49,653 nt of DNA from Escherichia phage BUCT-XGG-1: sequence record PP069513, one strand, 5' to 3'. Within the stretch, counting starts at the first letter, position 1. Each line of letters starts with the position of its first letter. The translations under genes were made by a program, and so were the position numbers. Below, in pieces: positions 2,247 to 49,573 of the stretch. The notes beneath the pieces are model-generated. The model was not told the DNA's origin. It did not search any database and saw only the letters and a program-made list of their open reading frames with translations.

Positions 2247-3830
2247 ATGTTTGATTTCAACGAAGATAAATTGTCAATCGATCAGGTCATGGCTGTAGCA
2301 GCTGCCGATAACCTGCCACCTTTGCGCGTTGCCATCAATGCGAACGGATACAGGCAGAGCCAATCATTCTGGAAAGCCCCAACAGAAATTGACTCAGGCG
2401 GTGACAAATATCCGGTTATCTCACTTGGTAACGATTATGATGTCGTTGGTAAGCTGTCAAGCAATGCCGCTCGTTCAGTTCAGTTCCCCGAGTCGTCCGC
2501 TTACATGCATTTCCTCGGATGCATATCAGCCGCCATGCTGGGCAGATTTACGGTTGAGTATCACGGAACACAACAGCCTACCGCGCTGTACGTCGTAACC
2601 AGTCAGCCACCATCGACAGGTAAATCAGCCATCAACTCACTTTCGCTGGCCCCGATGATCGCAGAGACTGAGCGACTCAACGAGATCAGAAAGCGTGACC
2701 GCAAGAAGATTATGGCTAAGCTCTCCGCTCTATCCAAGGAGATGAAGCAGGAGAAATCACCGTCTGACATGGCGGCGCTGTTTGAGGAAAAAGAAGAACT
2801 GGAAGAAAAACTGGAGCGACTTTGTGACATCGTGTTCCCCGTATCCGACACCACGCCGGAAGGTCTTGCGCGAATCAACAACCGCCAGGGAAACTTTGCA
2901 GTGATCTCGGATGAAGCAACGAGCGTGAACTCACTGTTAGGCATGACCTATGGTGATGGCTCGAAGAAAACGAACAGCGAACTCGTTCTTAAGGCGTGGG
3001 ATGCTGGTAACGTATCTATCGCGCGTGCGAACGCAGACAATAACATGAGCTTCATTGCGATGGGCTGCATATCTGTAATTGCACAGGATGAAACGATAAA
3101 CGCGATCATGAACGCTGGCGCGCGTGGTATCGGTGTATCCGAGCGTTTCCTGCTTGTGCGTGAGAAGTCATTCCTTGGTGAGCGTGTGTTCGTAGATGAG
3201 AAAGGCGAATCAACATATGAGCCGATTGATGGCGGACTCAAGGCGGACTACTTCCGTCTGGTCCATGAGATCATGAGCGAACACGAAGTCAACCTGACAG
3301 TGAGCACGTCGGCGATGAAATATCTCAACCGTGCGCGTCAGGATATGGAACCTCACCTTGCGGACGGCGGTAAGTATTCACACACAATGCTTCGCGGCGC
3401 GCTGGGTAAGTTCGATAAGCAGGCTATCAGGATCGCGGCTGTTCTTCACACTGTGCGTAACTGGTTTAATCCCAATGGCGGGAGTCCGCAGAAGTCCAGA
3501 GAGATTGAGCTTGACACAATGCAGGAAGCAGTAATTATGTTCCAGGAACTGAGTAAGACCTATCTGTCATCTGCAAACGCTGCTGGTCATGCTGGCGACC
3601 ATGCGGAGATGAATAAGCTGATCGATATTCTGATCAAGCAAGGTAAGAACGGGAAAGGCGTTGTAGGTGTCCGATCCCTATATGAAGCGGCTCGTAAGGT
3701 TAAGCCATTCGAGGGCCAGGCTGGCGTAATGACTCGAATCAAAGACCATCTGATCCCTATGCTTGATGAGAAAAACTATACGTGCCTGATTGGTGATAAA
3801 ATTTACATTAATCCGCGACTGCTGGGGTAA
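2247..3830 (+). CDS. large early protein with P-loop-like motifs (527 aa)
   Basis: RBS AAGGAG; Walker A-like PSTGKS and Walker B-like VISDEAT; N- and C-terminal segments repeated in 47566..48123. Confidence 0.6.
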   Translation: MFDFNEDKLSIDQVMAVAAADNLPPLRVAINANGYRQSQSFWKAPTEIDSGGDKYPVISLGNDYDVVGKLSSNAARSVQFPESSAYMHFLGCISAAMLGRFTVEYHGTQQPTALYVVTSQPPSTGKSAINSLSLAPMIAETERLNEIRKRDRKKIMAKLSALSKEMKQEKSPSDMAALFEEKEELEEKLERLCDIVFPVSDTTPEGLARINNRQGNFAVISDEATSVNSLLGMTYGDGSKKTNSELVLKAWDAGNVSIARANADNNMSFIAMGCISVIAQDETINAIMNAGARGIGVSERFLLVREKSFLGERVFVDEKGESTYEPIDGGLKADYFRLVHEIMSEHEVNLTVSTSAMKYLNRARQDMEPHLADGGKYSHTMLRGALGKFDKQAIRIAAVLHTVRNWFNPNGGSPQKSREIELDTMQEAVIMFQELSKTYLSSANAAGHAGDHAEMNKLIDILIKQGKNGKGVVGVRSLYEAARKVKPFEGQAGVMTRIKDHLIPMLDEKNYTCLIGDKIYINPRLLG

Positions 3831-4208: not shown

Positions 4209-4347
4209 GAATGGCATTAGTGAGGACGGGCTTAACCAAGCCCTTATCTCAATGCTTAACTCATCCATGCGCGCCGGACGACGTGATGAGCATACGTTGT
4301 GCAATAATGAAGGTGAATTGTTGCTACTGGTGCAAAGATTTGGATAA
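4150..4347 (+). CDS. possible small protein (65 aa)
   Basis: ORF ends right before the terminator hairpin; overlaps 3834..4208 by 59 nt so start is uncertain. Confidence 0.3.
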   Translation: MKSHSESQVVIDAIIRCSSENGISEDGLNQALISMLNSSMRAGRRDEHTLCNNEGELLLLVQRFG

Positions 4348-4380
4348 AAAAAGGGAGCCTTTCGGCTCCTTTTATTTTTT
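4346..4380. terminator. bidirectional intrinsic terminator
   Basis: A-run, GGAGCC TTTC GGCTCC, T-run; lies between convergent plus early genes and minus lysis genes. Confidence 0.65.
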
Positions 4381-5494: not shown

Positions 5495-5574
5495 ATGATC
5501 CACCATTTATGTAATTGTCAATATCTCAGTTAGTAAAAAATATAATACATTAGCACAGTATGAAAAAGAAGCGC

Positions 5575-5599
5575 AAAAAAAGGGAGCCTAAAGGCTCCC
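5575..5599 (-). terminator. intrinsic terminator
   Basis: Minus strand GGGAGCC TTTA GGCTCCC followed by T7. Confidence 0.6.
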
Positions 5600-5626
5600 C
5601 GTGCGTAACGTTATGTTTTTATTGCG

Positions 5627-7841: not shown

Positions 7842-7886
7842 AGTATACCCGCGCGGTGGCGGGTATGTTTAGCAATTCGTGCTATT
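7842..7886 (-). promoter_or_regulatory. box promoter candidate
   Basis: Box 7868-7886 containing TAG stop of 7882..8109; TATACT at 7842-7847 (22-bp gap). Confidence 0.45.
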
Positions 7887-8109
7887 CTGCGAAATATTCG
7901 GGGCAATCTCGCTTATAGTCTTCCATATCCTTTCGTATTGCAGCGCGCCATGATGATACTGACTGATCTTTCAACTCATCAAATGACATATCAAGATCAC
8001 CTGAGAATAACCACGCATCACCTTTGAACCCTGAACTTGTTAACTCATCGCAAACGATAGCACGAAATAAATGAAATTGATTACTTGATTTTACGCTCAT
8101 CTTAAACAC
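7882..8109 (-). CDS. hypothetical protein (75 aa)
   Basis: ORF overlapping end of methyltransferase gene. Confidence 0.4.
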   Translation of the reverse strand: MFKMSVKSSNQFHLFRAIVCDELTSSGFKGDAWLFSGDLDMSFDELKDQSVSSWRAAIRKDMEDYKRDCPEYFAE

Positions 8110-8833
8110 TCCGTTTACGTGGTTTCTTACGGCTTACGCCAGGGCAAATATCAGCGACGCTAACATATGTAGTCTTCTGCGTTTCGCCTTCTTGCAGTTT
8201 TCGCATGACAAAAATCACGCTACCTTTATTGTTGCCATCGACAGGCTTTCCGGTCATTCCAGAGATAAAGGCTAAGCGCCCCGTCCGGCAATATTCGTTG
8301 CTGTCAATATCCACAATAATATCCGCCTCAATCCAGATGATTTCAGCCGCGTTGCGTCTGGCTTCGGCAAACCACGCCGTTGAGTTATCACCAGGAAGCA
8401 ACATATCAATCTGATTGTTGTGCTCCATTTGCTCGATCGCTTTCTTCACGAAAGGATCTGGATGTGAGTACGGCGGATTAAGCCAGATGTGCTTATTGCT
8501 ACCCCACCAGATTTTTAGGCAGTTCACCTTTTCGCTGTAGAACTTTTCGCAAACAGCATTGTTAGCGCTGGCGGCGGCGTCAATGTCATACTTCCCATAG
8601 CGCGATTCCATCCAGGAAATCACTTCTCGGTCGGTGGCCCACAGATCACGCACGGCGTCAGGTGTCTTGCTTCCGGCGTATCGGTTTCCAGTTACCTGAT
8701 AGAAGGTGTCCGGCTTAACCGCCTGGTAATGACCGTTGCCAGGAACAAGCGCATTGTTAACAAAGTTTTCACGCTCGATCTGTTCAAAGCTAACAAATGC
8801 GTCATTGGTATCTTTGTCATTTGAGTCAATCAT
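8102..8833 (-). CDS. dam: DNA N6-adenine methyltransferase (Dam-like)
   Basis: NPPY catalytic motif (IWLNPPYSHPD) typical of N6-adenine amino-methyltransferases. Confidence 0.75.
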   Translation of the reverse strand: MIDSNDKDTNDAFVSFEQIERENFVNNALVPGNGHYQAVKPDTFYQVTGNRYAGSKTPDAVRDLWATDREVISWMESRYGKYDIDAAASANNAVCEKFYSEKVNCLKIWWGSNKHIWLNPPYSHPDPFVKKAIEQMEHNNQIDMLLPGDNSTAWFAEARRNAAEIIWIEADIIVDIDSNEYCRTGRLAFISGMTGKPVDGNNKGSVIFVMRKLQEGETQKTTYVSVADICPGVSRKKPRKRSV

Positions 8834-9192: not shown

Positions 9193-9602
9193 AGCATATC
9201 AGCAACGGCTTTCTTGTATTCCTCCTGGCCGTACGCCACCGCCGCGAATCCGCCACGCTCTCGGACACGCCGGAGGAAATCTTTCTGCTCCTTACTGACT
9301 GGTGATGCCTTTCCTTTTCCGCTCTTATTGACGCGCTTTAATTCTATGGCTCCGAAAGGATATTTACCGAACGGACCTAGAAGGAATACAAAGTCACTAA
9401 CCCCCTTCAATAACCCGCTCTGAGCATCCTTTAACGCCGTGTGGATGTGCTTCTTGTTCTCATTAACGGCGTGCCAGAACAGCAAATCACCATGCCTAAC
9501 CTTCGTCCAAGTCACGCAATCTACTTGGTGCTTGCTTTCCGTCCATGTGTCAGATTTGTCTGGCGTGTAATATTCAATGTAATCTATTTTATCGGTTTTC
9601 AT
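9174..9602 (-). CDS. VRR-NUC domain nuclease
   Basis: GVSDFVF ... AIELKR pattern matching VRR-NUC PD-(D/E)xK core. Confidence 0.55.
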   Translation of the reverse strand: MKTDKIDYIEYYTPDKSDTWTESKHQVDCVTWTKVRHGDLLFWHAVNENKKHIHTALKDAQSGLLKGVSDFVFLLGPFGKYPFGAIELKRVNKSGKGKASPVSKEQKDFLRRVRERGGFAAVAYGQEEYKKAVADMLNSTNC

Positions 9603-10081
9603 TTTTTCGCTCCGTGGTTTTTATGGAACCCATTGGTTGACTCTGTAAGTTTTCTTGCTGAGATTGCATCGGCAAGTGACCTTCCTTCGTATAGGAATTT
9701 TTTCTTACCGCCAATCTGTATCTGTGCTACCCATGTCTTATTCCTTGACTTCCAGTTAACTCCTGTAACTCCGCTTTTGTTGTTTGAATACATCGACTTG
9801 TTAAGCATGTTATCGCCGCGACTAACAAGCCTTAAGTTTTCTATTCTATTATCAGTTCTTATGTGGTTTATGTGGTCAACCTCCATTCCGTTCGGCATTG
9901 GTCCGTTATGCATTACCCAAACTATGACGTGAGCGGGTTATGACTTCTTTTTGTACATGACTTTAATGTAACCTTCGCTGTCTATAGTGCCGGCTAAGTC
10001 TCCCTCATACACCTTTGCGCTGGGCTTTATAGCCCAGAATAATAATCCATTTTTATAATTCAGTATGTTATTAAAAATCAT
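9599..10081 (-). pseudogene. HNH-AP2 homing endonuclease interrupted by in-frame TAA
   Basis: ATG at 10081 (ATGA overlap with helicase stop) gives MIFNNILNYKNG...YKKKS then TAA at 9938-9940, then in frame PAHVIVWVMHNG...DHINHIRTDNRIENLRLV; full-length paralogs at 17492, 36060, 12801. Confidence 0.6.
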
Positions 10082-12264: not shown

Positions 12265-12747
12265 GTGATGAAAATGAATGCAAATGATAAGCGTACTCTT
12301 AACGGTAACAACGGAACTATCCGCACGGAAGATAAGAAGCAGCGCAAACGACCGTCAGGTTACTATGTTCTCAAGGATGAAGTAAAGGCCGGATTAAGAG
12401 CGCGACTTGATATTGTGTTTGAGTTCTACGGCAGCAAGGCGAACATGGCGAAGCAATTAAAAGTTACTCGACAGGCAGTTGAGGAATGGTTTAAGCGTGG
12501 GATGATGTCGGCGCGCGGTGCTCAACTGGCGCACAACCGATATAAGCGAACTGGCGAAGGGTTCCGCGCTACATTCTGCCGACCAGACTTGCAATTCGAC
12601 GGGAACGGTAAGCCGTTAACGCTGCGTTGCAAAAAGCGTCACATGTTGCGCGTCGTCACCGAGGCTGAACTAGCCACTAAGCCTGAATGTCGCTCATGGC
12701 GAAAAATTAAAGCAGCAAACGAAGCAGCACGGAAAGCTAAAGAATAA
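12265..12747 (+). CDS. HTH DNA-binding protein (Cro/YdaS-like)
   Basis: Segment GSKANMAKQLKVTRQAVEEWF fits an HTH; basic protein; divergent from helicase operon. Confidence 0.45.
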   Translation: MMKMNANDKRTLNGNNGTIRTEDKKQRKRPSGYYVLKDEVKAGLRARLDIVFEFYGSKANMAKQLKVTRQAVEEWFKRGMMSARGAQLAHNRYKRTGEGFRATFCRPDLQFDGNGKPLTLRCKKRHMLRVVTEAELATKPECRSWRKIKAANEAARKAKE

Positions 12748-12754
12748 CAATCAA

Positions 12755-12787
12755 GGTTGTGCCATAATTGGTGCAACCTTTTTTTAT
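12755..12787 (+). terminator. intrinsic terminator
   Basis: GGTTGTGCCA TAAT TGGTGCAACC (two G.U pairs) followed by T7. Confidence 0.5.
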
Positions 12788-12800
12788 TGGAGTAAATACA

Positions 12801-13247
12801 GTGAAGATATTAAGATTTTTGTATCTATATAAAGATGGTAATTTAATTCGATGCTACAGGGCTGGGAGGCACGCGCCTGGAGAAGTAGCAGGCACTGCTC
12901 ATATCTCAGGTTACATTCATGTTGGCGTGCTAGGGAAAATAATGAAAGCGCATAGGGTTTCATGGTGGATAAACTATGGCTTCATACCTGATCATTTGCA
13001 TATAGACCACAAAAATCACATTAGGAGTGATAACAGAATAGAAAACCTTGAATTGAAAAGTAACGCCGAGAATCACAAAAACATGTCTATATATAAAAAC
13101 AATAAGAGTGGAACTCATGGCGTTAGATGGAATAGAAAATTCTCAAGGTGGGACGTAAACATCGTAGTTAATGGCAAAAAGTGCTACGTTGGAGTTTTCA
13201 AGTCTCTTTCTGCCGCAGTAGATGCTAAGATTAAAGCAGAAATATAA
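12801..13247 (+). CDS. HNH-AP2 homing endonuclease
   Basis: GTG start after GGAG RBS; HxxH..N..H HNH core (HIDHKNHIRSDNRIENL) and AP2-like tail; start moved downstream of terminator. Confidence 0.7.
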   Translation: MKILRFLYLYKDGNLIRCYRAGRHAPGEVAGTAHISGYIHVGVLGKIMKAHRVSWWINYGFIPDHLHIDHKNHIRSDNRIENLELKSNAENHKNMSIYKNNKSGTHGVRWNRKFSRWDVNIVVNGKKCYVGVFKSLSAAVDAKIKAEI

Positions 13248-14270: not shown

Positions 14271-14289
14271 TTTTAGCAATTAGTGCTAT
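14271..14289 (-). promoter_or_regulatory. orphan box copy in inverted orientation
   Basis: TTTTAGCAATTAGTGCTAT on plus strand; no -10 at the usual spacing in the box orientation; sits 22 nt upstream of tail fibre ATG. Confidence 0.4.
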
Positions 14290-14312: not shown

Positions 14313-16232
14313 ATGGCAATTTACAGAACTGGTACTGCCTCGCTGGCTGCAAACGGCGTGGTAATTGGTGTAGGGACAAAGTGGCAGGACAAGTTATCTC
14401 TGATCCGTGTCGGAGCTACGATCATGTTTCCAACCGTAGTTGGGGCTATTGGCACTATCTCGGCAATAGTTAGCGATACAGAATTGCGAGTTATGACGAC
14501 GAACGGCTCTGTAGTTCCTGCCGGATCTCAATACGTCATCCTGCTTCACGATTCAATTACGGTTGATGGCTTGGCCCAGGACGTAGCGGAAACACTGCGA
14601 TACTACCAAAGCAAAGAAACTGAGGTTGCCGAAGCGATTGACTTCTTCAAAACGTTCGATTGGGAGCAATTCAAGGTTGTTGCTGACAATGTTACGGCTG
14701 ATGCAGCGGCGGCTAACGCAAGTAAGAACGCAGCGGCGGCATCTCAGACTGCGGCTAAGACGTCAGAGAATAACGCTAAGAATTACGCCGATAGCATTAA
14801 CCCGTCTCTTTTGCTGGCTAAAAACCAGAACCTTGCAGATCTTGCTAACAAGGATACGGCAAGATCTAACATTGGTCTTGATCGATTCTTCCAGCTCATT
14901 GGCGCTGGCGAAACTCGAGTAAAAAGCGGAGATGCTTCAAAATGGGTGTTTGTTAAAGATAACGGTGATTGGGGATGTTGGGATTCTACAACAAGCAAAG
15001 CTAAAGCGCTTGCGTTGCCATTTGGCGGAACTGGCGCGAGTGACGCGGCAGGTGCGCGGACTAACTTTGATGTTTACAGCAAGGAGGAATCACTTGACGC
15101 AGTTGGCATTGGAGCATCGCCAAGGCATATTGCAGACATGGCTGATATTCCGAAAGGGTTTGCTCGAATTGTAGACGGATCAACAACTGGAGGGATTAGC
15201 GGATTCACTGGTGCTGGTTGGATTGCTCAGGTTGACGGATCGCAAAGTTATGCTGGGATGTTTGTACAGCCTGACGGTAACAGGGTTTTTGCTGGGGGGC
15301 AAAACATTGGTTCGTCATGGTCGTGGCATGAAATCCCAACACTTGACAGAAACAACCAATTTAAGGGTGACATTGAAATACTTAGAGAGTGGCCAGGGCT
15401 TAGGTTGTCAGTTGCATCCGCTGCGCAAGATGATATTGGCGGACAAATACATGTAGAGAACAACGGAAAGAGTAGTCTAAACATTTACTTCACTAGGAAG
15501 GATGGAAATACTGACGGAAGGAGCAAAATAGCAATAGAAAGACCACCTAGCGAGGTGCTGCTTTTTATGGGCATGAATGGTGGGCTGGCTCCTAATGGCA
15601 CTAATGATTACTTATTTTCTGGTAACAATTTCAACGTTCAGCCTCAAGGTTGGCGTAATGTTGGTGGCCCATACACTAACGGACCAACATCCGGAAGTGT
15701 TTATGGCTCTTTGTTCACTCAGTGCACGCAAGGTTTATACTTGGGGAACTCTCCTGATGTTAACCCTAATCAAGTGTGGTGGCAGCAAAGGTTCTTTGAT
15801 ACAAATAACAGGATCTTTACAAGGGTTAACACCAACAAAGGAGCTTGGGGAGGGTGGGCTCAGTTAACGACAAGCGCCGTGTCTGATGAGCGACTCAAGA
15901 ATGTACTGGGTAGTTTGAACGTAGAAGGCGCACTGGACAACATCAACCGGATGGAGTTCAAACTTTTTAAATTCAAAGAGGAACAGGTAGAGGGCAAGGA
16001 ACCTACGTTACGACGTGGTGTTATTTCTCAGCAATTGAGATTGATTGACAAGGAATACACCAAGGAAATTGGCGGTTATTATCACCTTGACCAAACTCCG
16101 ATGCTTCTTGATGGCCTTGCTGCAATTAAGGCATTAAGAGAAAGGGATGAGGATAACAAAGTGAGAATTGCAAAACTTGAATCTGATATTGAGGAATTGA
16201 AGGCGATGGTTTTAGCATTGAGTAGCAAATAA
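14313..16232 (+). CDS. tail fibre with C-terminal intramolecular chaperone (peptidase S74-like)
   Basis: C-terminal AVSDERLKNVLG motif of self-cleaving chaperone domains; Ala-rich shaft; start at ATG 14313 after AAAGAGG RBS. Confidence 0.8.
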   Translation: MAIYRTGTASLAANGVVIGVGTKWQDKLSLIRVGATIMFPTVVGAIGTISAIVSDTELRVMTTNGSVVPAGSQYVILLHDSITVDGLAQDVAETLRYYQSKETEVAEAIDFFKTFDWEQFKVVADNVTADAAAANASKNAAAASQTAAKTSENNAKNYADSINPSLLLAKNQNLADLANKDTARSNIGLDRFFQLIGAGETRVKSGDASKWVFVKDNGDWGCWDSTTSKAKALALPFGGTGASDAAGARTNFDVYSKEESLDAVGIGASPRHIADMADIPKGFARIVDGSTTGGISGFTGAGWIAQVDGSQSYAGMFVQPDGNRVFAGGQNIGSSWSWHEIPTLDRNNQFKGDIEILREWPGLRLSVASAAQDDIGGQIHVENNGKSSLNIYFTRKDGNTDGRSKIAIERPPSEVLLFMGMNGGLAPNGTNDYLFSGNNFNVQPQGWRNVGGPYTNGPTSGSVYGSLFTQCTQGLYLGNSPDVNPNQVWWQQRFFDTNNRIFTRVNTNKGAWGGWAQLTTSAVSDERLKNVLGSLNVEGALDNINRMEFKLFKFKEEQVEGKEPTLRRGVISQQLRLIDKEYTKEIGGYYHLDQTPMLLDGLAAIKALRERDEDNKVRIAKLESDIEELKAMVLALSSK

Positions 16233-16263
16233 AAAAAGGAGCCGCAAGGCTCCTTATTTGTTT
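16231..16263. terminator. bidirectional intrinsic terminator
   Basis: A7 GGAGCC GCAA GGCTCC T-rich, between convergent tail fibre and SSB genes. Confidence 0.65.
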
Positions 16264-16268
16264 ACCAA

Positions 16269-16718
16269 TCAGAATGGGATGTCATCATCGAACTGGTTTT
16301 GCTGCTGCGGTTGCTGCTGCTGGCGTTGTTGCTGCTGAGGCTGCTGACGTTGTTGCTGCTGGCCTTGGCCCTGCTGTGATGGCTCACGCTGGCTGAATTG
16401 CAACTGAGGCCGGATCATCTCTGCGGTTACATAAACAGTGCCGTCATTACCCTGGCGTGACGCCAAGTGAAGCGTGTCGGCAGAAATTGATACAATCTTA
16501 CCTTCCTTGAACGCTTCATCATACCACTGCATAACGTTTTCTTTTGCGAAGAACGTAGCGCGGTAGTTACTGTAAACCGTCTCATCCTCGCCCTGTTGAT
16601 TGCGAATCTTCATGCGTTCTGACAGTTCGACGGCGTACATTTTCCAGCGCCCGTTGTTGTTGCTGCCTTCTTTGGTAAATGGTGCTTTTCGGATCTGACC
16701 AGTGATTACGTGTGGCAT
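16269..16718 (-). CDS. ssb: single-stranded DNA-binding protein
   Basis: Gln/Pro-rich linker and acidic C-terminal tip DDDIPF characteristic of bacterial-type SSB. Confidence 0.85.
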   Translation of the reverse strand: MPHVITGQIRKAPFTKEGSNNNGRWKMYAVELSERMKIRNQQGEDETVYSNYRATFFAKENVMQWYDEAFKEGKIVSISADTLHLASRQGNDGTVYVTAEMIRPQLQFSQREPSQQGQGQQQQRQQPQQQQRQQQQPQQQNQFDDDIPF

Positions 16719-17452: not shown

Positions 17453-17495
17453 ATTATAGCAAATCACCGCGTTCGTGTTTAGCAAAAAGTGCTAC
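17453..17495 (-). promoter_or_regulatory. box promoter candidate
   Basis: Box GTAGCACTTTTTGCTAAA (17478-17495) containing TAG stop of HNH gene; hairpin CGGTGATT..AATCACCG holding TGCTATAAT (21-bp gap). Confidence 0.5.
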
Positions 17496-17950
17496 CTGCC
17501 ATGCCTTAAAGTAAAATCACCATTCATTGAGATGTATCTTTCCCTTGCCTCTTTCGCTTCAATTGCCGTGTTGAAACTACCAAGGCTTTTCTGCACTCCA
17601 TTTACCTTTACCCTTGCGTTCCATTTACATCTTTGCTTAACAAAAACAACACCTGTGAATCCTGATGTGTTATTTGACTGCATCTTTTTATTTTTATTGT
17701 TGATGGCTCTAGTTACAAGTCTTAGGTTTTCAATCCTGTTATCACTTCTTATTCCGTTAATGTGGTCTATCTCGTAACCTTCTGGTATAGGTCCGTAGTG
17801 CATTTCCCATATAACCCTATGATATAGAAACTTCACATAGTTAAATGAGATCATTAAGTACCCGTTACCTTTCGGTGTTCCGGCAATCTTGCCGCTTTTT
17901 ATCCAGTAAAGGTTGCCGTCTATGTATTTTAATTTCTCATTGAAATTCAT
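17492..17950 (-). CDS. HNH-AP2 homing endonuclease
   Basis: EIDHINGIRSDNRIENLRLV HNH core and AP2-like C-terminal region; inserted between exonuclease and Erf. Confidence 0.8.
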   Translation of the reverse strand: MNFNEKLKYIDGNLYWIKSGKIAGTPKGNGYLMISFNYVKFLYHRVIWEMHYGPIPEGYEIDHINGIRSDNRIENLRLVTRAINNKNKKMQSNNTSGFTGVVFVKQRCKWNARVKVNGVQKSLGSFNTAIEAKEARERYISMNGDFTLRHGR

Positions 17951-18981: not shown

Positions 18982-19266
18982 CTCTTTAATCCTCGTTAGT
19001 TGTTGATGCTGGTAACTATACTCGCTTGGTTGCGTTAGTCAAGTGGTTACATGTAGATGTTTGTAATCACGTGTATGCAATGGCGTCAGTTACATAAAAT
19101 GTCTATCCATACCAGCTATAGCTTGATGTAAACAGCTTGTATATCGTGTATACCATTTTTCGCTGAGGGTGCATTAGTGTATGCGTGATTAGATACTGTA
19201 TGAATATACATATTAGAAATTTATAAGCGGAATACTCTATAGAAGTAGTTACACGATATACACAGT

Positions 19267-19345
19267 AATATATATAATAATAATAATTATAGTAGAGGGT
19301 TGATATATATAGATATTTTAATGTAACTATCGCGTAACTAGGCGT
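19267..19345 (+). repeat. AT-rich element, copy A of a two-copy repeat
   Basis: ATATATAATAATAATAAT..GAGGGTTGATATAT..GATATTTTAATGTAAC..GCGTAACT, homologous to 48941-49016; GTAACT/GTTACA iterons around it. Confidence 0.6.
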
Positions 19346-19412
19346 AACTGCGCGTATATCATTTTCCGCGGACGAGATTGTATACATCGAGTTACATCGG
19401 TTACACGTATAC

Positions 19413-19458
19413 AATAGCACAAATAGCTAAAGACTCCGCCGCTCGTTGCATGTATAGT
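19413..19458 (+). promoter_or_regulatory. box promoter candidate (variant AATAGCACAAATAGCTAAA)
   Basis: Box 19413-19431, TGTATAGT at 19453-19458 (23-bp gap), then membrane peptide and lipoprotein genes. Confidence 0.45.
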
Positions 19459-19494
19459 TACTCCATAGAAAGCAAATCACATAAGGGTTAAGAA

Positions 19495-27025: not shown

Positions 27026-29941
27026 TTACGCTCCTGCTTTTCCGTTGATGTAATTGTAAACTTCGCCACCCTGGGAACATGATTCCTGAATCATTTGCTT
27101 GAAAATCATTTTCACGCCCTGCTCCATGCCCTTCGGATCGCTACCGTTATTGATGCTAACAGGGATGCTACCAATTGTCACGCCGCCAGCCATGATTGCA
27201 CCGCCACCGCCACCACCGCTTGAAGTTCCACCAACCATCCCACCATTCGCATAACCGCGCATCATTCGATAAAGGTTATCGACTCCAATTCGCTTGGTAG
27301 CTTCCTTGGTCATGACAAATTCACCTTTATGAACTGTGCCCGCTGGCTCATACTTTCCGCCGTCTCCGGTATATCCGCCAGTGGCGAACCATCCTGAGTT
27401 AGCGAAGGAGAACCCCTTACCGCTGCCACCGCCCATCATACCTGACAGTGAGTTAAAGATTACCATCTGCGTTATCATCTTAATAATCTGGCTGATAATA
27501 CTCTTTGCAAAGTCGGCAAAGTTGGCCTGGCCCGTCATCAAGAACTCAGTCATCATGTCAGACAAACCGTTCAGGGCGTTAGCTGCGATGTTGCCTACGT
27601 TGGTGTACATATCCGTTGCGCTTTCTCCGTAGTCTTCAAATGCACGTTGCGCGCCTGCAAGCCAGTCTCTGCGTTTCTCATCCTCGTTGGCGTAATACTC
27701 TTTCTGCTTGTCAATCATTTTCTTGAGAGCTTCATCATCCTGACCGCCGCCCTTAGACATGTAATCCGCTCGGATCTTCTCAAGCTGAATCTGGCGTTCT
27801 GCCTCAAGTGTACCCATGGCGCGCGTGGCGTTAAGGCTTTTGCTCGCTGCGTCAATTTGCATGATGAACTTCATTGATTCGTCATTCAGTTTGTTGATCT
27901 GCTCCTGCTTAACAATCTGATCACCAATCTCTGCTTTCTCCTTCGCTAACGAAAGCACCTTTTGCTGACTGGCTAGCAATGCTTTTTCCTCGTTGGTCAG
28001 CTTGCGCTTACTCTGTGCATCCTGGAGGATTGAAATCTGAGCCTCTGTAGCCCACAAAGCACGGCGCTGTGTTGAGATCTTGTCGTTAATAGACTTGTGA
28101 TCTTCTAAAACTTTAAGCTGAGCTTTGAGAACGTAAAGTTCTTTATCAAGCTGTTCAGTAGCGCCCTTGGTTACTACTGCGCCGCTGCTCTTAGTCTTCT
28201 TCCTGTTCTGCTCTTCAATGGCTTTTGCTTCCTTCTCTACAGCCTCCTTTGTCTCCTTGCTGTATTGCTTCTCCATATCGCGTCGGTTCTTGAGAGCGTT
28301 GATGTAACCCATTTCGCCCTTTTCTACTCGCGCGTTAATCACGTCCAGATCTTTTGCGAGGCTGTCATAGGTGTCTTTGGAGTTCTTAACGATAGTCTGC
28401 TGTTCGTTGAGAATATCCTTACCGAAATCACTCATACCAGGCAGGCTTTGCGTTGCCTTGATTGCTGAGGCAATAAAGCTAGAAATGTACTCGTCACCTT
28501 TGGCGAGAATCATTTTTACCTGAATCACCGTACCGCTAACCACGTCAATTATGAGGTTTAGAGCACCAAGCGTATGATCGCCAACCCACCCCCAGGCGTC
28601 GGATGACCATTTCTTAATGTCGGTCCACATTTTCTCAAGCGGCGTTGCAGTACCTGCAATCTTGCTCATGCGTTCTTCCATGGTGTCAGCAAACAGCTTG
28701 GTCGCCTCCGTCACGGCTTCGGTTTCGCCCTTGGTTTTAACAATCCCGTTGATATAGGTCAGTTGGCCTTTCTCCAGGAAGTTGTATTGCTCATTTAGCT
28801 TCGCAAGCCCTTTCACCGGATCATCTGCAATCTTGCCAAAGTCACTGATAATGTCGCTCGTAGCTCGGCCCGTTGCGGCTGACCATTCAGCGGTGGCGCG
28901 GGTGATATTCCTGATTTGGTCCTGAGTGTACTTACCGCTTTTTGCAAGCTCAGTGGCAATTTCTCGCACAGATCCGATAGTCGCATTGCTGGTGTCTGCA
29001 ATTTTGTTTGCGATCTGGTCAAGGTCCGCCGCGCTCGCCGCTGCAAATCCGCCAGTCTCAATCAGGGCGTTTTTCATGTCTGTGATGGATCGGTAGGAGT
29101 CGTAACCAGCTTTAGCAAGGCCAGCAAGTGCGATACCCATAGCGCCCATACCAACCGTTACCGGATTAAGGTAAGAAAGCAAAACTTTAAACGTATTCCC
29201 AACACCGCCGAACGAATCCTTGATCTGCCCGCCCTGCTGGATTGCAACCAGCCATACAGGCATACCGGAAGCAAGGGAGGTAACAACGTCAGTGATCTGC
29301 ATTGGCAAGATGCGCAGCGCGTTCTTGTACTCGCCAGCGGAAAGGCCAGCCGCATTTGTCGCTACAGTCTGCTTGTTCATCGCTGCAATTAAAGGTGCGG
29401 CCTGATTCGATACGCCAAGCTGTGCCGCCTTCAATTCGAGAAGCTCAGTCTTGGTCATTGTCGCAGCATTGGCTTGTTCTTGCAGTGATTTAAGGAACCT
29501 GTCAGCGTCCTTTGTTGCCGCCTCTTTGGCTTTTGAGTTAGCCATAGCCGCACGGCCTTCTTCGGTCAGCGCCATCTTGGATCGGTTAAGCGCATTGATC
29601 TGAGTTTCAATCATGCTTGACAGATTGAAGAACTCGGCGTCTGGAACTAGGCCTTTGCTCCAGAGGTTATCCAGGTCAACGCTCGCCTTCTGCAACTGGC
29701 GCATTTTTCCGATTGTAGGATCAATGGCTTTCTCTACGTCGGCAAATTCTTTCTTCTGGCGCTTAACCTCGTTGTTGAACTCTTTCATCTTCTGCTTTGC
29801 TACTTGCTCAGCATCAATGAAATTGTCAAAGCTCTTTCCGGCTGTGTTGTTCGCCCTGGATAAGTCATCCAGAGATTTAACCGCCGCATCAACCTGGGAT
29901 ACGTCAACCCCAAGCGATAGCCCTGCAAATTTATCTGTCAT
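27026..29941 (-). CDS. tail tape measure protein
   Basis: 971 aa, Ala/Lys/Glu-rich helical composition, Gly-rich C-terminal part, follows G/GT chaperone. Confidence 0.85.
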
Positions 29942-29977
29942 AAAACCCCCATACGAAAAAAGCGCCCGTAGGCGCTA

Positions 29978-30606
29978 TTATTTTTTGTGCATCTGCTTAA
30001 GCGCTTCCGCTTCCATCACACGCACATCATTTAAGGCCATTTCTTCACAATCTATTTTATAGATTCGAAATAGCATAGGCAAGACATTATAATCAAGCCC
30101 GTAGGCTCCGGCTCCGGCAGATCTCCATTGCGTTTGCATCGCGGTGAATACTTCCCATGACTGGTATGTTTCCTCGTCGAACTGCAATATCTCCGGCTCT
30201 TCGTTGTCGTAGTCTTCACGGGTTAATCCGTATGCCTCAAGCTCTGAGTCGGTGGGCGCTCGCCTGAATAATAGCTCGACCGCCCGTTTTAGTTTTTTAC
30301 TCGGTAGCCAGCCAGCGCTTGAGTGTAGGTTGAGATCAGGCCACCAACAACGGCAGGGTAACTATCAACAAGCTTATTGATGTTTTCATCATTGAACTCG
30401 TCCTCAAGTTCCCACCCGCTAGCCAGGGATTTTACAAACTGAGCGCCAGTCTGTTTTTCTGCATTTTTCAGCGTGGCGTTAAGTTCGGATGACGTTAGCG
30501 CCTTGACAGTGAATGAAAACGAAGCTTCAACGCCGTTCGGCAATACGAATTTAACCGGAAGCGGGAAGTCTGGCAGGCGTTCAGATAGGGTTACTTTAAA
30601 GCTCAT
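29978..30606 (-). CDS. tail assembly chaperone G-T fusion (via -1 frameshift)
   Basis: -1 frame stays open from slippery site 30292-30298 to stop at 29978; lambda G/GT-like arrangement between major tail and tape measure. Confidence 0.5.
30289..30606 (-). CDS. tail assembly chaperone (G-like)
   Basis: 105-aa ORF ending GYRVKN just after AAAAAAC heptamer. Confidence 0.6.
   Translation of the reverse strand: MSFKVTLSERLPDFPLPVKFVLPNGVEASFSFTVKALTSSELNATLKNAEKQTGAQFVKSLASGWELEDEFNDENINKLVDSYPAVVGGLISTYTQALAGYRVKN
30292..30298 (-). other. -1 programmed frameshift slippery heptamer A_AAA_AAC
   Basis: Minus strand GTA AAA AAC TAA: X_XXY_YYZ heptamer in frame with G, 3 nt before its stop. Confidence 0.55.
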
Positions 30607-32571: not shown

Positions 32572-32996
32572 CGCACACACCCCCGCGCCCGAATACCAGA
32601 GATAATGCCGAAGCCGCCGCCTTTCTTCTTGTTGAGAACGTCGTACATTTTGCCCCATGGGGTTTGTGTAATCTGACGCCCATCAGTGTTCTGAGTTACA
32701 GATCCGTAGCCAGTCGAAAATTCACCGCTCAGGGAGAATGACGTTACTCGCCGTGAGTAGTTCTCCAGACTTTCATTCTCTCCCTTCATTGCGCCATCCA
32801 AAAACATCAGGTGCATGGTGTACAGTGCCAACGCTTTGTAATAATCCTTACCGAATTTATTCTTGCACACAAAAGATTCAGCCAGCACCATCCACGCAAG
32901 AAATATTTCAGGATCAACCTCCTTTAATGCTGGGGCTAGTTGGCACATAAACTCGAAAGCCTTAGTCTGATATTCATTCATATTTTGCCTCCACAA
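32568..32996 (-). CDS. head-tail connector protein (putative)
   Basis: Position downstream of capsid gene. Confidence 0.4.
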   Translation of the reverse strand: MWRQNMNEYQTKAFEFMCQLAPALKEVDPEIFLAWMVLAESFVCKNKFGKDYYKALALYTMHLMFLDGAMKGENESLENYSRRVTSFSLSGEFSTGYGSVTQNTDGRQITQTPWGKMYDVLNKKKGGGFGIISGIRARGCVR

Positions 32997-33026
32997 TCAA
33001 AAAAGGACCCGTAAGGGTCCATTGAT

Positions 33027-36063: not shown

Positions 36064-36545
36064 TTTTTACTCCCGTGATTTTTATGAAATTTATATACAG
36101 ACTCCGCAACCTTTCTTGCAGAGATTGCGTCATCTTTTCTATCGTATCTACCAAGGAATTTCTCCTTTTTGTCCACCCTTATTGAAGCAATCCATTTACT
36201 GGTTCTATTACACCAGCTAACGCCAACAACTCCGCTTTTGTTTGACTTGCTCATGGATACGTTTTTGCAATTCTCTTGTCTAGTAGTTACGAGCCTTAGG
36301 TTTTCTATCCTGTTATCATCTCTGATATGGTTTATATGGTCAATCTCCATTCCTTCAGGTATTTTACCATGGTGCATCTCCCATATTACCCTATGAGCCG
36401 GAGTTAGCCTACCCATAATCCTAACGTAAATATATCCACCCTCATCCTTCCAGCCAGCCATATCGCCAACTTTAACCCTTTTCGATGTCGGATTTTTCCA
36501 GATGAGATCTTTCTCTATATGATAAAAATAATCATTGAAATTCAT
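36060..36545 (-). CDS. HNH-AP2 homing endonuclease
   Basis: EIDHINHIRDDNRIENLRLV core and AP2-like tail; inserted between head morphogenesis and scaffold genes with 4-nt overlaps. Confidence 0.8.
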   Translation of the reverse strand: MNFNDYFYHIEKDLIWKNPTSKRVKVGDMAGWKDEGGYIYVRIMGRLTPAHRVIWEMHHGKIPEGMEIDHINHIRDDNRIENLRLVTTRQENCKNVSMSKSNKSGVVGVSWCNRTSKWIASIRVDKKEKFLGRYDRKDDAISARKVAESVYKFHKNHGSKK

Positions 36546-40796: not shown

Positions 40797-40823
40797 ATAA
40801 AAAAAGCACCCCGAAGGATGCTT
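40797..40823 (-). terminator. intrinsic terminator
   Basis: AAGCATCC TTCG GGGTGCTT followed by T7. Confidence 0.65.
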
Positions 40824-40830
40824 AAATGAA

Positions 40831-41452: not shown

Positions 41453-41529
41453 TGGCGTTCAGCGCTGGACTCGAACCAGCAACTAAGACTTAGGAGGTCT
41501 TTGCGTTATCCTGTTAACGCCAGCAGAAC
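41453..41529 (-). tRNA. tRNA-Arg (anticodon CCU)
   Basis: Hand-folded cloverleaf: D stem GCGT/ACGC, anticodon stem AAGAC/GTCTT, loop CU-CCU-AA, T arm GCTGG-TTCGAGT-CCAGC, encoded CCA; acceptor stem has one U.U mismatch. Confidence 0.65.
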
Positions 41530-48656: not shown

Positions 48657-48692
48657 TACTCCTGATTGGTTTGTCTTCGTTAAGATGAATAC

Positions 48693-48720
48693 ATAGTATC
48701 ACACATCTACGCGTTATCAA
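48693..48720 (-). promoter_or_regulatory. candidate sigma70 promoter (TTGATA-N16-TACTAT)
   Basis: Minus strand TTGATA at 48715-48720, 16-bp spacer, TACTAT at 48693-48698, ~35 nt upstream of first leftward gene. Confidence 0.4.
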
Positions 48721-48940
48721 GCGTTATCCGTGCAAATTATCTGACTAGTTACAGATTTCTGCCAATTTCGCCATATATAGCTCAATGTAAAGTCTGCGTA
48801 CAGTTTGTAGATAAAGATTTTTAGCAAATTGGCCCCTATATGCCTTTTTATTCCTACAATGTCGTCATATTCCTACAAGTGTAGGAAAATATCATAGAAA
48901 ACTATCGCAATATCCCATATCCCTTATCTACATTATCTAC

Positions 48941-49016
48941 ATATATATATAATAATAATAATAATATAGATAAAGGGTTGTTATATAAGGATATTTTATT
49001 GTAACCATGGCGTAAT
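48941..49016 (+). repeat. AT-rich element, copy B of a two-copy repeat
   Basis: Homologous to 19267-19345 by eye; flanked by short direct/inverted repeats (TTCCTACAA x2, ATCTACAT x2, GGCGTAA x3). Confidence 0.6.
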
Positions 49017-49283
49017 TCTGCGTGATAAGCGTACACGATTCCTACGGTGGGCTTCTTCATCTACACGGCGTAACTTTTATAACGCGTATGCGCTAGAAAC
49101 GTGTGGTGGGAAAATCCTACCAGGCGATCAGGTGATCAGACTTCACCCCATCATTCCCCCCATCAATGAATCATTGCTCAATTCGCAACAATCGAAAACA
49201 TAATTGCAATAGATGCAATATTGCTATCTGCGCAATAGTGAAGTGAATCATTGCAATAGCTGCAACAATCCATAAATCGAACG

Positions 49284-49328
49284 AATAGCACTTTTTGCTA
49301 AATACATAAATCATCATTCTGGTAATGT
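49284..49328 (+). promoter_or_regulatory. box promoter candidate
   Basis: Box AATAGCACTTTTTGCTAAA (49284-49302); TGgTAATGT at 49320-49328 (22-bp gap). Confidence 0.4.
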
Positions 49329-49528
49329 GTATCTCAAGGAAGCAGTGAAGCGAACGCCAAGTAGCTACTTCCCAGAGGTCGAATCGTCCAGATGAAAAAT
49401 GCTGGCGAGTGTTGAGAAAGGGCACGTTGAGTCACTTCCGAATAGGTAAACTCCCAGACACCTTCTCCGGCAGCAAAGTCTGACCGGGTTCCTCGAAAGA
49501 AGTAAATGAAGTAGAAATAAGGTTAGTA

Positions 49529-49573
49529 AATAGCACGAAATGTTAAAACAGCAATAAAGAAAATAAGTATAGT
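49529..49573 (+). promoter_or_regulatory. box promoter candidate reading across window end
   Basis: Box AATAGCACGAAATGTTAAA (49529-49547), TATAGT at 49568-49573 (22-bp gap); no long ORF before window end. Confidence 0.45.

Follow-up and report, generated by a model that had tools for sequence, protein, structure and literature searches.

Paired A/T-rich repeat modules in two intergenic regions of Escherichia phage BUCT-XGG-1 and other Drexlerviridae as candidate replication origins

The plasmid origins of pSC101 and R6K gamma are iteron origins that work with the assistance of integration host factor (IHF) and carry iterons of about 17-22 bp at a spacing of about 22 bp. The T4 origins oriF and oriG and the primary origin of T7 consist of a promoter followed by an A/T-rich unwinding element and are primed by a transcript, with multiple origins per genome. 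In the satellite phage P4, the same short repeat, TGTTCACC, spaced by 9-11 bp and present in both orientations, is found at two separate non-coding loci, ori and crr. In phage-inducible chromosomal islands (PICIs) of E. coli, an A/T-rich region taken to be the melting site lies between two iteron sets, and the element encodes its own initiator, a helicase (PMC6092414). Among the T1-like phages, no origin was found in the genome papers of TLS (PMC11447400) and SU57. The present work deals with a 49,653-nucleotide stretch of Escherichia phage BUCT-XGG-1 (record PP069513), hereafter the window, which is the near-complete 49.6-kb genome of a T1-like, Nouzillyvirus/Rtp-like siphophage of the Drexlerviridae. 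Two of its non-coding regions, region A (18982-19494, 514 bp) and region B (48657-49300, 644 bp), each contain one copy of a repeat which, judged from sequence comparison, is an ancient cis-acting DNA module conserved family-wide. In each copy, an A/T-only tract is preceded by TACAY sites and followed by an IHF-like site, an A/T-rich core and four phased direct repeats of the GTAAC/GCGTAA type, an anatomy that tentatively suggests a replication origin.

As in P4, two separate non-coding loci of one genome share the same short repeat. In addition, the Zn-ribbon of the phage primase is homologous to that of the P4 alpha protein, and relatives of the TLS type carry at both loci a GTTCAC core resembling the P4 type-1 repeat TGTTCACC. 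On the contrary, the repeat of the window is GTAAC/GCGTAA, and for alpha's helicase and DNA-binding parts no homologue could be detected in the window phage; comparison of P4 alpha with DUF3987 helicases gave no similarity, the homology being limited to the primase Zn-ribbon. The longest A/T run of P4 ori is 16 bp, against pure tracts of 26-28 bp here, and the two P4 loci lie about 4.5 kb apart, against 29.7 kb in the window phage (19.9 kb the other way round on a circular map). Finally, the replication role is proven for P4, whereas for the window phage it is putative. Since an alpha-type primase-helicase with a C-terminal origin-binding domain was not found, the window phage is not a member of the P4-type ori/crr system, although it may work in a similar way. 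A homologue of the alpha DNA-binding part was not detectable in TLS either.

With the Pri/Rep origins of PICIs and Staphylococcus aureus pathogenicity islands (SaPIs), the module shares the presence of sites on both sides of the A/T tract, GTTACA/TACAY on one side, GTAAC/GCGTAA and further GTTACA on the other. A PICI origin is nevertheless a single copy adjoining pri-rep, whereas the window holds two copies far from its helicase and primase genes, and its helicase belongs to the DUF3987 (MCM-like) type and not to the PICI Rep family. In pSC101 and R6K gamma, too, an A/T-rich unwinding region is followed by an IHF bend site and at least three direct initiator repeats, but the window cores measure 5-7 bp at a spacing of 10-11 bp, the IHF match is imperfect, the window phage has no Rep-family initiator and there is no DNA similarity to PLSDB plasmids. 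T4 and T7 are likewise lytic phages that lack a classical initiator and carry an A/T-rich element beside promoter-like hexamers. Nevertheless, no convincing promoter is seen at the window element, and the T4 and T7 origins have no phased iterons.

The literature covered, which did not extend to the original Rtp and T1 genome papers, refers to this DNA once only, where a later paper relates at second hand that "ATATA repeats" had been predicted in T1. These repeats coincide with what corresponds to copy B in T1 (positions 233-274), but they had been interpreted as a single-locus packaging signal. That literature makes no mention of a second copy, which sits between the exonuclease gene and cor, nor of the phasing of the GCGTAA repeats or of conservation throughout the family.

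The paired module and its anatomy

An earlier note on this DNA had described closely similar elements at 19267-19345 and 48941-49016, and both are present at these coordinates in the same orientation. The repeat family pairs 19274-19345 with 48952-49023 over 72 nt, ungapped, at 79% identity; the alignment of copy A with copy B scores 14 standard deviations (SD) over shuffles, and a 31-nt core pattern, GGGTTGNTATATANNGATATTTTANTGTAAC, has two exact matches in the window versus none in 100 shuffles. In an alignment of 27 copies from 18 phages, which also served to assess conservation, the similarity exceeds the span first described, reaching from about 19247 to 19375 in A and from about 48924 to 49052 in B, that is, from two TACAY sites left of the A/T tract through a CCGCGG-like tail. 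Weaker homology between A and B is found in the 285 bp left of the tracts (z=4.3), and a second box, TATAGCTYRATGTAAA, located about 150 bp leftward of the repeat, has its sole window occurrences at 19117 and 48776. The paired repeat is real and its copies are direct-orientation paralogues. The module and its flanks are composed of the following parts.

19114-19133, plus strand: second shared box, copy A, palindrome AGCTATAGCT followed by TGATGTAAA; TATAGCTYRATGTAAA twice in the window, kept in relatives
48776-48791, plus strand: second shared box, copy B (TATAGCTCAATGTAAA)
19138-19150: left arm TGTATATCGTGTA of a 13-bp inverted repeat whose right arm, TACACGATATACA, is at 19250-19262
19248-19264, plus strand: two TACAY sites 9 bp apart (GTTACAC, GATATACAC), directly left of A/T tract A and including the right arm of the inverted repeat
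48924-48941, plus strand: two tandem 9-mers TTATCTACA, 8/9 match to the DnaA box, directly left of A/T tract B
19266-19291: A/T-only tract A, (AT)n(AAT)n, 26 bp, candidate DNA unwinding element
48941-48968: A/T-only tract B, (AT)n(AAT)n, 28 bp, candidate unwinding element
19293-19305, plus strand: IHF-like site A, TAGAGGGTTGATA (consensus YAANNNNTTGATW, one mismatch)
48971-48983, plus strand: IHF-like site B, TAAAGGGTTGTTA (one mismatch)
19306-19322, plus strand: A/T-rich core A, TATATAGATATTTTAAT, conserved
48984-49000, plus strand: A/T-rich core B, TATATAAGGATATTTTATT, conserved
19323-19358, plus strand: four direct repeats A, GTAAC, GCGTAAC, GCGTAAC and GCGTATA, starts 11, 10 and 10 bp apart, candidate iterons
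49001-49052, plus strand: four direct repeats B, GTAAC, GCGTAAT, GCGTGAT and GCGTACA, starts 11, 10 and 9 bp apart, then conserved tail
19359-19375, plus strand: module tail A, TCATTTTCCGCGGACGA, conserved and similar to the B tail GATTCCTACGGTGGG
19389-19406, plus strand: two more GTTACA sites, 9 bp apart (starts 19391 and 19400), in the orientation opposite to the GTAAC repeats

The A/T tracts are the two longest A/T-only runs of the window, B being first and A second, while the third measures 17 bp. By nearest-neighbour calculation they are also its two least stable duplex segments at lengths of 30, 60 and 100 bp, deviating from the genome mean by about 5 SD, tract B ranking lowest and tract A second lowest at 30 and 60 bp. 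Within the tract, ATAATAATAAT is invariant across the 27 copies. To the right, the sequence TAAAnGGTTGWTAT of the module corresponds to the IHF consensus YAANNNNTTGATW; the perfect consensus TAAAAGGTTGATA is found in most A copies of the relatives, and TAAA..GGTT is invariant or nearly so throughout the alignment. The A/T-rich core follows the consensus TATATAnnGATATTTTAWT and is recognisable in TLS as TATATAGATATTTAAT.

The direct repeats of both copies share the consensus GTAAC, GCGTAA, GCGTRA, GCGTAY, of which the GCGTA and GCGT are invariant in the 27 copies. The spaced pattern GCGTA-N5-GCGT has five matches in the window versus 0.22 expected, and three of the five are inside the two modules. 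The other short motifs listed in the earlier note were recovered, namely GTAACT (19323, 19334, 19344) and GTTACAT (19046, 19089, 19391), each three times in A, and in B ATCTACAT twice (48926, 48935) as well as TTCCTACAA twice (48851, 48870) with an inverted TGTAGGAA, TTCCTACAA having no other genomic copy. Only GGCGTAA differs: it had been counted three times in B and has only two exact copies there (49009, 49067), the phased series reading GCGTAA, GCGTGA, GCGTAC. The TTCCTACAA pair with its inverted TGTAGGAA (48851-48888) is seen in region B only; it is kept in Nouzillyvirus, JulesPiccard, Msk and RobRod40 but not in phages of the ESCO41 type.

Left of the tracts, ATATACACA in the TACAY sites of copy A matches the DnaA-box consensus at 8 of 9 positions, and an inverted copy of the TTATCTACA-type 9-mer lies at 48806-48814. 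The 13-bp inverted repeat of region A brackets about 100 bp, with centres about 112 bp apart. Among 20 diverse homologues, each pair is formed in 18-20, and 10 of the 13 are invariant. As no covariation was found among these 20 homologues, the inverted repeat reads as a pair of sites acting at the DNA level rather than as RNA pairing. A looser inverted analogue of other sequence is present in region B (TGTAGATAA at 48806, TTATCTACA at 48924 and 48933) and is lost in some relatives. At the far right of the A module, T1 has a comparable GTTACA pair in its region A (positions 422 and 441, 19 bp apart), and TLS shows GTGAACA..GGAACA at the matching place.

A phasing of A-tracts had also been proposed and does not stand. 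Tracts of at least four A or T number four in the 514 bp of region A (starting at 19096, 19156, 19316 and 19362) and nine in the 644 bp of region B, at irregular distances and at about the genome average of 8.9 per kb, and a test for intrinsically bent DNA (runs of at least four A/T at about 10.5 bp) detected no such phasing in A or in B.

Both regions are non-coding. The sole long open reading frames (ORFs) in them, the minus-strand frames 19103-19420 and 49171-49425, translate A/T repeats into poly-Tyr or Cys-rich sequence, and the A/T repeat under the first one carries indels of 1-2 nt among relatives. Region A has no GATC site, though the phage encodes a Dam-type methylase (8102-8833), and region B has two (49126 and 49134), near the inferred packaging start.

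Conservation and distribution

The nearest records to the window are the Nouzillyvirus phages 50EP, CJ19 and GaoY1-9D, and remoter matches include Rtp, ESCO41 and other Braunvirinae. Both copies were present in all nine relatives in which both regions were examined, including ESCO41, IME253, ETEP102, ES and RobRod40, and the B copy was also found in the Rogunavirinae phage Opt-719. In the alignment of 27 copies, 51 columns are invariant. Identity between phages is 0.93 for A copies and 0.83 for B copies. Gene conversion between the copies was considered and ruled out, since A and B are equally similar within a phage and across phages (0.747 versus 0.748). The copies have therefore long been maintained separately, and by this comparison they are old paralogues held apart by selection and not homogenised by recombination.

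Region A persists while the genes adjoining it are exchanged. For instance, JeanPiccard has a Dcm methylase on its right, and Rtp-type phages have a different gene on its left. About 385 bp of the region are very well conserved, and in some divergent metagenome contigs it is the sole stretch, or one of few, that aligns to the window, with 81-91% identity. Outside this group, the longest or nearly longest A/T runs of T1 (Tunavirinae) and TLS (Tempevirinae) lie at these two loci (T1 29851-30377 and 48675-48836 plus 1-538; TLS 28707-29117 and 49708-49902 plus 1-588), and in T1 region B two GGCGTAAT repeats 10 bp apart adjoin the A/T run. The module is conserved across five lineages of Drexlerviridae.

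The module occurs at these two loci only. It has no match in PLSDB plasmids or in E. coli genomes, a scan of viral contigs with a long sequence pattern returned Rtp-like phages only, and all genome and metagenome matches lie in a Drexlerviridae-like context; judged by these searches, the module has therefore not been taken over from any known replicon. In a set of 185,579 bacterial and archaeal genomes, the sole match was contig NZ_VSMK01000220.1 (46,669 bp), labelled Nitratidesulfovibrio liaohensis XJ01, which holds a B-type element in a Drexlerviridae-like layout. This contig is probably a T1-like phage contaminant of the assembly and not Desulfovibrio sequence.

The short motif that decorates the flanks of the module differs between subfamilies and is common to the two loci within a phage. 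The T1 genome has six copies of TGTAACA, all within its two counterpart regions, and at the equivalent positions TLS carries GTGAACA (four of eight genomic copies) and TGGAACA (four of eleven). Because the motif changes with the phage lineage although all phages compared infect E. coli, the pattern points to a phage-encoded binder of the module and not to a host factor.

Possible functions of the module

Of the functions considered, we prefer, tentatively, an origin of the iteron-plus-unwinding-element kind. A phage DNA-binding protein would occupy the phased GTAAC/GCGTAA repeats and the TACAY/GTTACA sites that flank the A/T tract. The DNA would be bent by host IHF, or by intrinsic flexibility at TAAAGGGTTGWTAT, the 26-28 bp (AT)n(AAT)n tract, being the least stable duplex of the genome, would melt, and the helicase would be loaded, after which the phage primase (13274-14218) would prime synthesis by the host polymerase. 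The two copies may act as two origins, or as an origin and a cis-required partner in the manner of P4 ori/crr. In keeping with this reading, at least three short repeats in the same orientation and at regular spacing, as expected of iterons, are found in A and in B, an A/T-rich candidate unwinding element adjoins them in both copies, and the two cis loci share a common repeat as they do in P4. As regards host factors, the IHF-like sequence has one mismatch per copy, and DnaA-like 9-mers with 8/9 matches stand directly beside both A/T tracts.

As candidates for the binder, the MCM-like DUF3987 helicase (2247-3830) would be the first choice and a Cro-like helix-turn-helix (HTH) "transcriptional regulator" (12265-12747), whose gene adjoins that of the primase, the alternative. 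DUF3987 proteins are proposed to be MCM-like replicative helicases of superfamily 6 (SF6) whose C-terminus is reported to carry a winged helix-turn-helix (wHTH) (PMC4889955). The Zn-ribbon of the primase resembles (35% over 85 aa, E=2e-11) the one in P4 alpha, and the phage also encodes a superfamily 2 (SF2) RadD-like helicase. No recognised initiator was found among the phage proteins beside the primase and the DUF3987 helicase, and searches of PDB and NCBIfam with the HTH protein and the helicase gave nothing useful.

Several observations weigh against an origin. The direct-repeat cores of 5-6 bp at a spacing of 10-11 bp are below the size of classical plasmid iterons, and neither window copy has an exact match to the IHF consensus. 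The DnaA-box-like 9-mers, all 8/9, number four in both regions versus about 1.5 expected, an estimate from their genome-wide density. GC skew tracks only gene orientation and transcription. In comparisons of the window phage, T1 and TLS, the helicase and the HTH protein are each about equidistant among the three, which made them uninformative as to the binder. Finally, both regions are divergent early-promoter regions, in which an operator or enhancer array would show the same pattern of conservation. T1 requires host elongation genes but is not known to require the host initiation genes, which suits an initiator encoded by the phage and speaks against a DnaA-dependent version. A reading of (TAA)n as DnaA-trios was not adopted, the DnaA-box evidence being weak and T1 not being known to depend on host initiation.

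The genes next to the modules have promoters elsewhere in the two regions. Region A is bordered on the left by a minus-strand operon for a RecE-like exonuclease, Erf and a single-stranded-DNA-binding protein (SSB) and on the right by a plus-strand gene pair for a small membrane protein and a lipoprotein. Region B has on its left a long minus-strand block, in which a DUF7174 gene is followed by terminase, head and tail genes, and on its right plus-strand early genes that continue at the window start; the GenBank records of many relatives begin within it. The following elements lie outside the repeat.

19015-19042, minus strand: predicted leftward sigma-70 promoter of the exonuclease/Erf/SSB operon, TTGACT-16-TATAGT, 10/12 match
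48693-48765, minus strand: predicted leftward sigma-70 promoters of the DUF7174-first operon, TTGATA-16-TACTAT with TG and TTGGCA-18-GATAAT; TLS counterpart P01
19412-19457, plus strand: putative rightward promoter for the genes of the small membrane protein and the lipoprotein, a 21-nt repeat (19412-19431), a weak -35 and a -10 TATAGT (19452-19457)
49130-49275: packaging (pac) candidate in region B, 47-bp tandem unit with TGCAAYA repeats

The promoter equivalent to 19015-19042 is retained in relatives, its TLS homologue being P51, and the rightward promoter at 19412-19457 is our inference from conserved spacing in relatives. Both P01 and P51 are among the sigma-70-like intergenic promoters in Table S1 of the TLS paper, the main text of which counts three (PMC11447400). 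Between the flanking promoters lie about 370 bp (A) and about 500 bp (B) of conserved DNA with no promoter role. As both regions carry their own flanking promoters, the module is not needed as a promoter.

The 21-nt family repeat, aaATAGCACnnnTTGnTAAAA, stands beside both modules (19412-19431 and 49283-49302), and the module does not match its consensus, being a different sequence. The TLS genome paper describes it as an intergenic repeat without assigned function (PMC11447400). In relatives, ATGACn, 17 nt and a TATAnT hexamer come next; because this arrangement is found after it in the region B relatives, the repeat would occupy the interval from about -38 to -58 of a weak promoter, where an activator site or an UP element would be placed. 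At least 14 copies, written aATAGCACnnnTTGnTAAA and containing the inverted half-sites TAGCA/TGCTA, are present in the window, on the plus strand at 255, 1740, 19414 and 49285 (also 49528-49547) and on the minus strand at 7868, 9173, 12243, 14272, 42753, 43382, 45194, 46082, 46789 and 47552. All except the copy at 14272 face the downstream gene.

The module could also be a regulatory nucleoprotein array, that is, a set of operators or an enhancer through which a phage regulator, possibly with IHF, controls the two divergent early-promoter regions without any role in replication, for example in an early-to-late switch or in the shut-off of sigma-70 promoters. We regard this as rather doubtful, though it is the main rival. 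Both loci are divergent promoter regions whose gene-proximal leftward promoters match P01 and P51 of TLS, direct repeats phased by 10-11 bp are typical of winged-helix regulators, a Cro-like HTH regulator is encoded at 12265-12747, the invariant inverted-repeat pairs about 112 bp apart suggest looping, and the subfamily-specific motif at both loci fits a phage regulator equally well. The A/T tract starts exactly 285 bp from the start codon of the first leftward gene in region A and in region B alike, but this offset varies between 242 and 323 bp in T1 and TLS. Moreover, distances of 230-250 bp to the leftward promoters and 120-280 bp to the rightward ones are large for a simple operator, the promoter-associated element of the family is a different motif, the 21-nt repeat, and an operator role leaves unexplained a trinucleotide-repeat A/T tract of 26-28 bp at the stability minimum. 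It is improbable that the module is itself a promoter, be it a rightward sigma-70 promoter with a TACA-type -35 and a -10 in (AT)n(AAT)n, one that uses the A/T tract as UP element, or a leftward GTTACG-17-TACAWT, which would transcribe into the tract and could prime replication as at T4 or T7 origins. Candidate hexamers do exist (TATACA-16-AATAAT and TACACA-17-AATAAT in A, TCTACA-18-AATAAT twice in B; on the minus strand GTTACG-17-TACATT in A and TACAAT in B), all copies retain the TACA sites and the A/T tract, and the annotators of ETEP102 predicted promoters over the tract. Yet these candidates match at 9 of 12 positions only and are about as frequent in shuffles (three versus 2.8 in region A, six versus 3.3 in B), every register of (AAT)n yields a -10-like hexamer, several B copies lack the final T of the leftward -10, the gene sets on either side already have promoters of their own and the conserved sequence downstream gives no signal of RNA structure. 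As for the UP-element version, TTGATA/TTGTTA does lie at the right distance from the A/T tract, but the hexamers 16-18 bp past it are TGTAAC, GTAACT and TAACTA, none of which is a TAnnnT -10. Of the three options offered in the earlier note, replication origin and protein-binding array thus fit the anatomy as far as it can be read, and the bent UP-element-like promoter does not.

A part in the packaging signal is very improbable. In its favour, SPP1 has bipartite pac sites with bent flanks; against it, classical mapping of T1 gave a single pac. Copy B lies 110-200 bp to the left of the likely pac region: the annotated terminal repeat of the T1 record starts at its position 1, which corresponds to about 49219 of the window, and the published PhageTerm start of phage MSK corresponds to about 49132. 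The MSK paper attributes to Wietzorrek et al. (2006) the prediction of five ATATA repeats in T1 with regard to locating pac, a second-hand mention that favours this view, and the SU57 paper places pac in the untranslated region of region B. Both starts nevertheless fall outside the element, and neither record shows a second packaging start beside the one PhageTerm position of MSK and the one annotated end of T1. A separately conserved tandem block at 49180-49275, with TGCAAYA at 49205, 49214, 49252 and 49261 plus CGCAAC/CGCAAT, is highly conserved, Rogunavirinae included, and is the better candidate, being the probable pac or small-terminase binding region. Copy A, the better conserved of the two, is 29.7 kb off in a region that has no TGCAAYA block. 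Most improbable of all is a small RNA or a cis-acting RNA leader encoded by the conserved region. The extent of conservation in region A (about 385 bp) would suit it, and the consensus fold of 19044-19270 beats column-shuffled controls (z -4.8 on the plus strand, -3.0 on the minus strand), but this signal consists of the inverted repeats, in which a pair either never varies or changes on one side, with no compensatory change seen, and it appears on both strands as for DNA-level sites. In addition, single-sequence folds give z-scores of -0.44 and +0.24, no Rfam 15 family matches either region even at E<=1, and neither a terminator in region A nor a convincing promoter was found.

The preferred reading, an origin, can be taken further. 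T1-like phages might replicate from a two-locus system, with modules beside the pac site and the recombination genes, trinucleotide-repeat unwinding elements, mini-iterons at 10-11 bp and the DUF3987 helicase as initiator, the loci cooperating like P4 ori/crr or firing at different stages (theta-type early, recombination-linked late). In this full form the proposal is unlikely and speculative, and the P4-like two-locus arrangement and the link to DUF3987 are its more novel, unproven parts.

Other window features and meaning for the family

A repeat segment of about 113 nt is common to several HNH homing-endonuclease genes (9820-9932, 17710-17822, 36284-36396), with further spans at 12768-13247, 17492-17950 and 9599-9913 and inverted copies at 9836-9877 and 13005-13046. 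A tRNA-Arg (anticodon CCU) is encoded at 41453-41529 on the minus strand, as also reported for other T1-like phages. The SSB gene carries on the minus strand, at 16286-16408, a 15-nt periodic GCTGCTG repeat that gives a Gln/Pro-rich low-complexity linker near the C-terminus. Finally, stem-loops followed by T runs (AAAAAGGGAGCC...GGCTCC) at 4345-4372, 5574-5601, 16229-16256, 32996-33023 and 40797-40824 look like intrinsic terminators between transcription units, some of them bidirectional.

T1 belongs to the seven classical T phages, and contamination of laboratories and fermentations by T1-like phages is notorious. The 385 bp of region A are the most conserved DNA stretch among divergent relatives and might be used as a marker to detect such phages or as a CRISPR target in protecting production strains. 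A pair of short, sharply defined candidate sites makes the question of the T1-like origin directly testable. If the module is instead a regulatory array, it would be the main conserved cis-control element of the two early-promoter regions of the family. If the origin reading is true, it would provide the first DNA target for DUF3987-type replicative helicases, and if the two-locus system with DUF3987 holds as well, the modules would be the first origin described for Drexlerviridae and the first assigned to a DUF3987 helicase.

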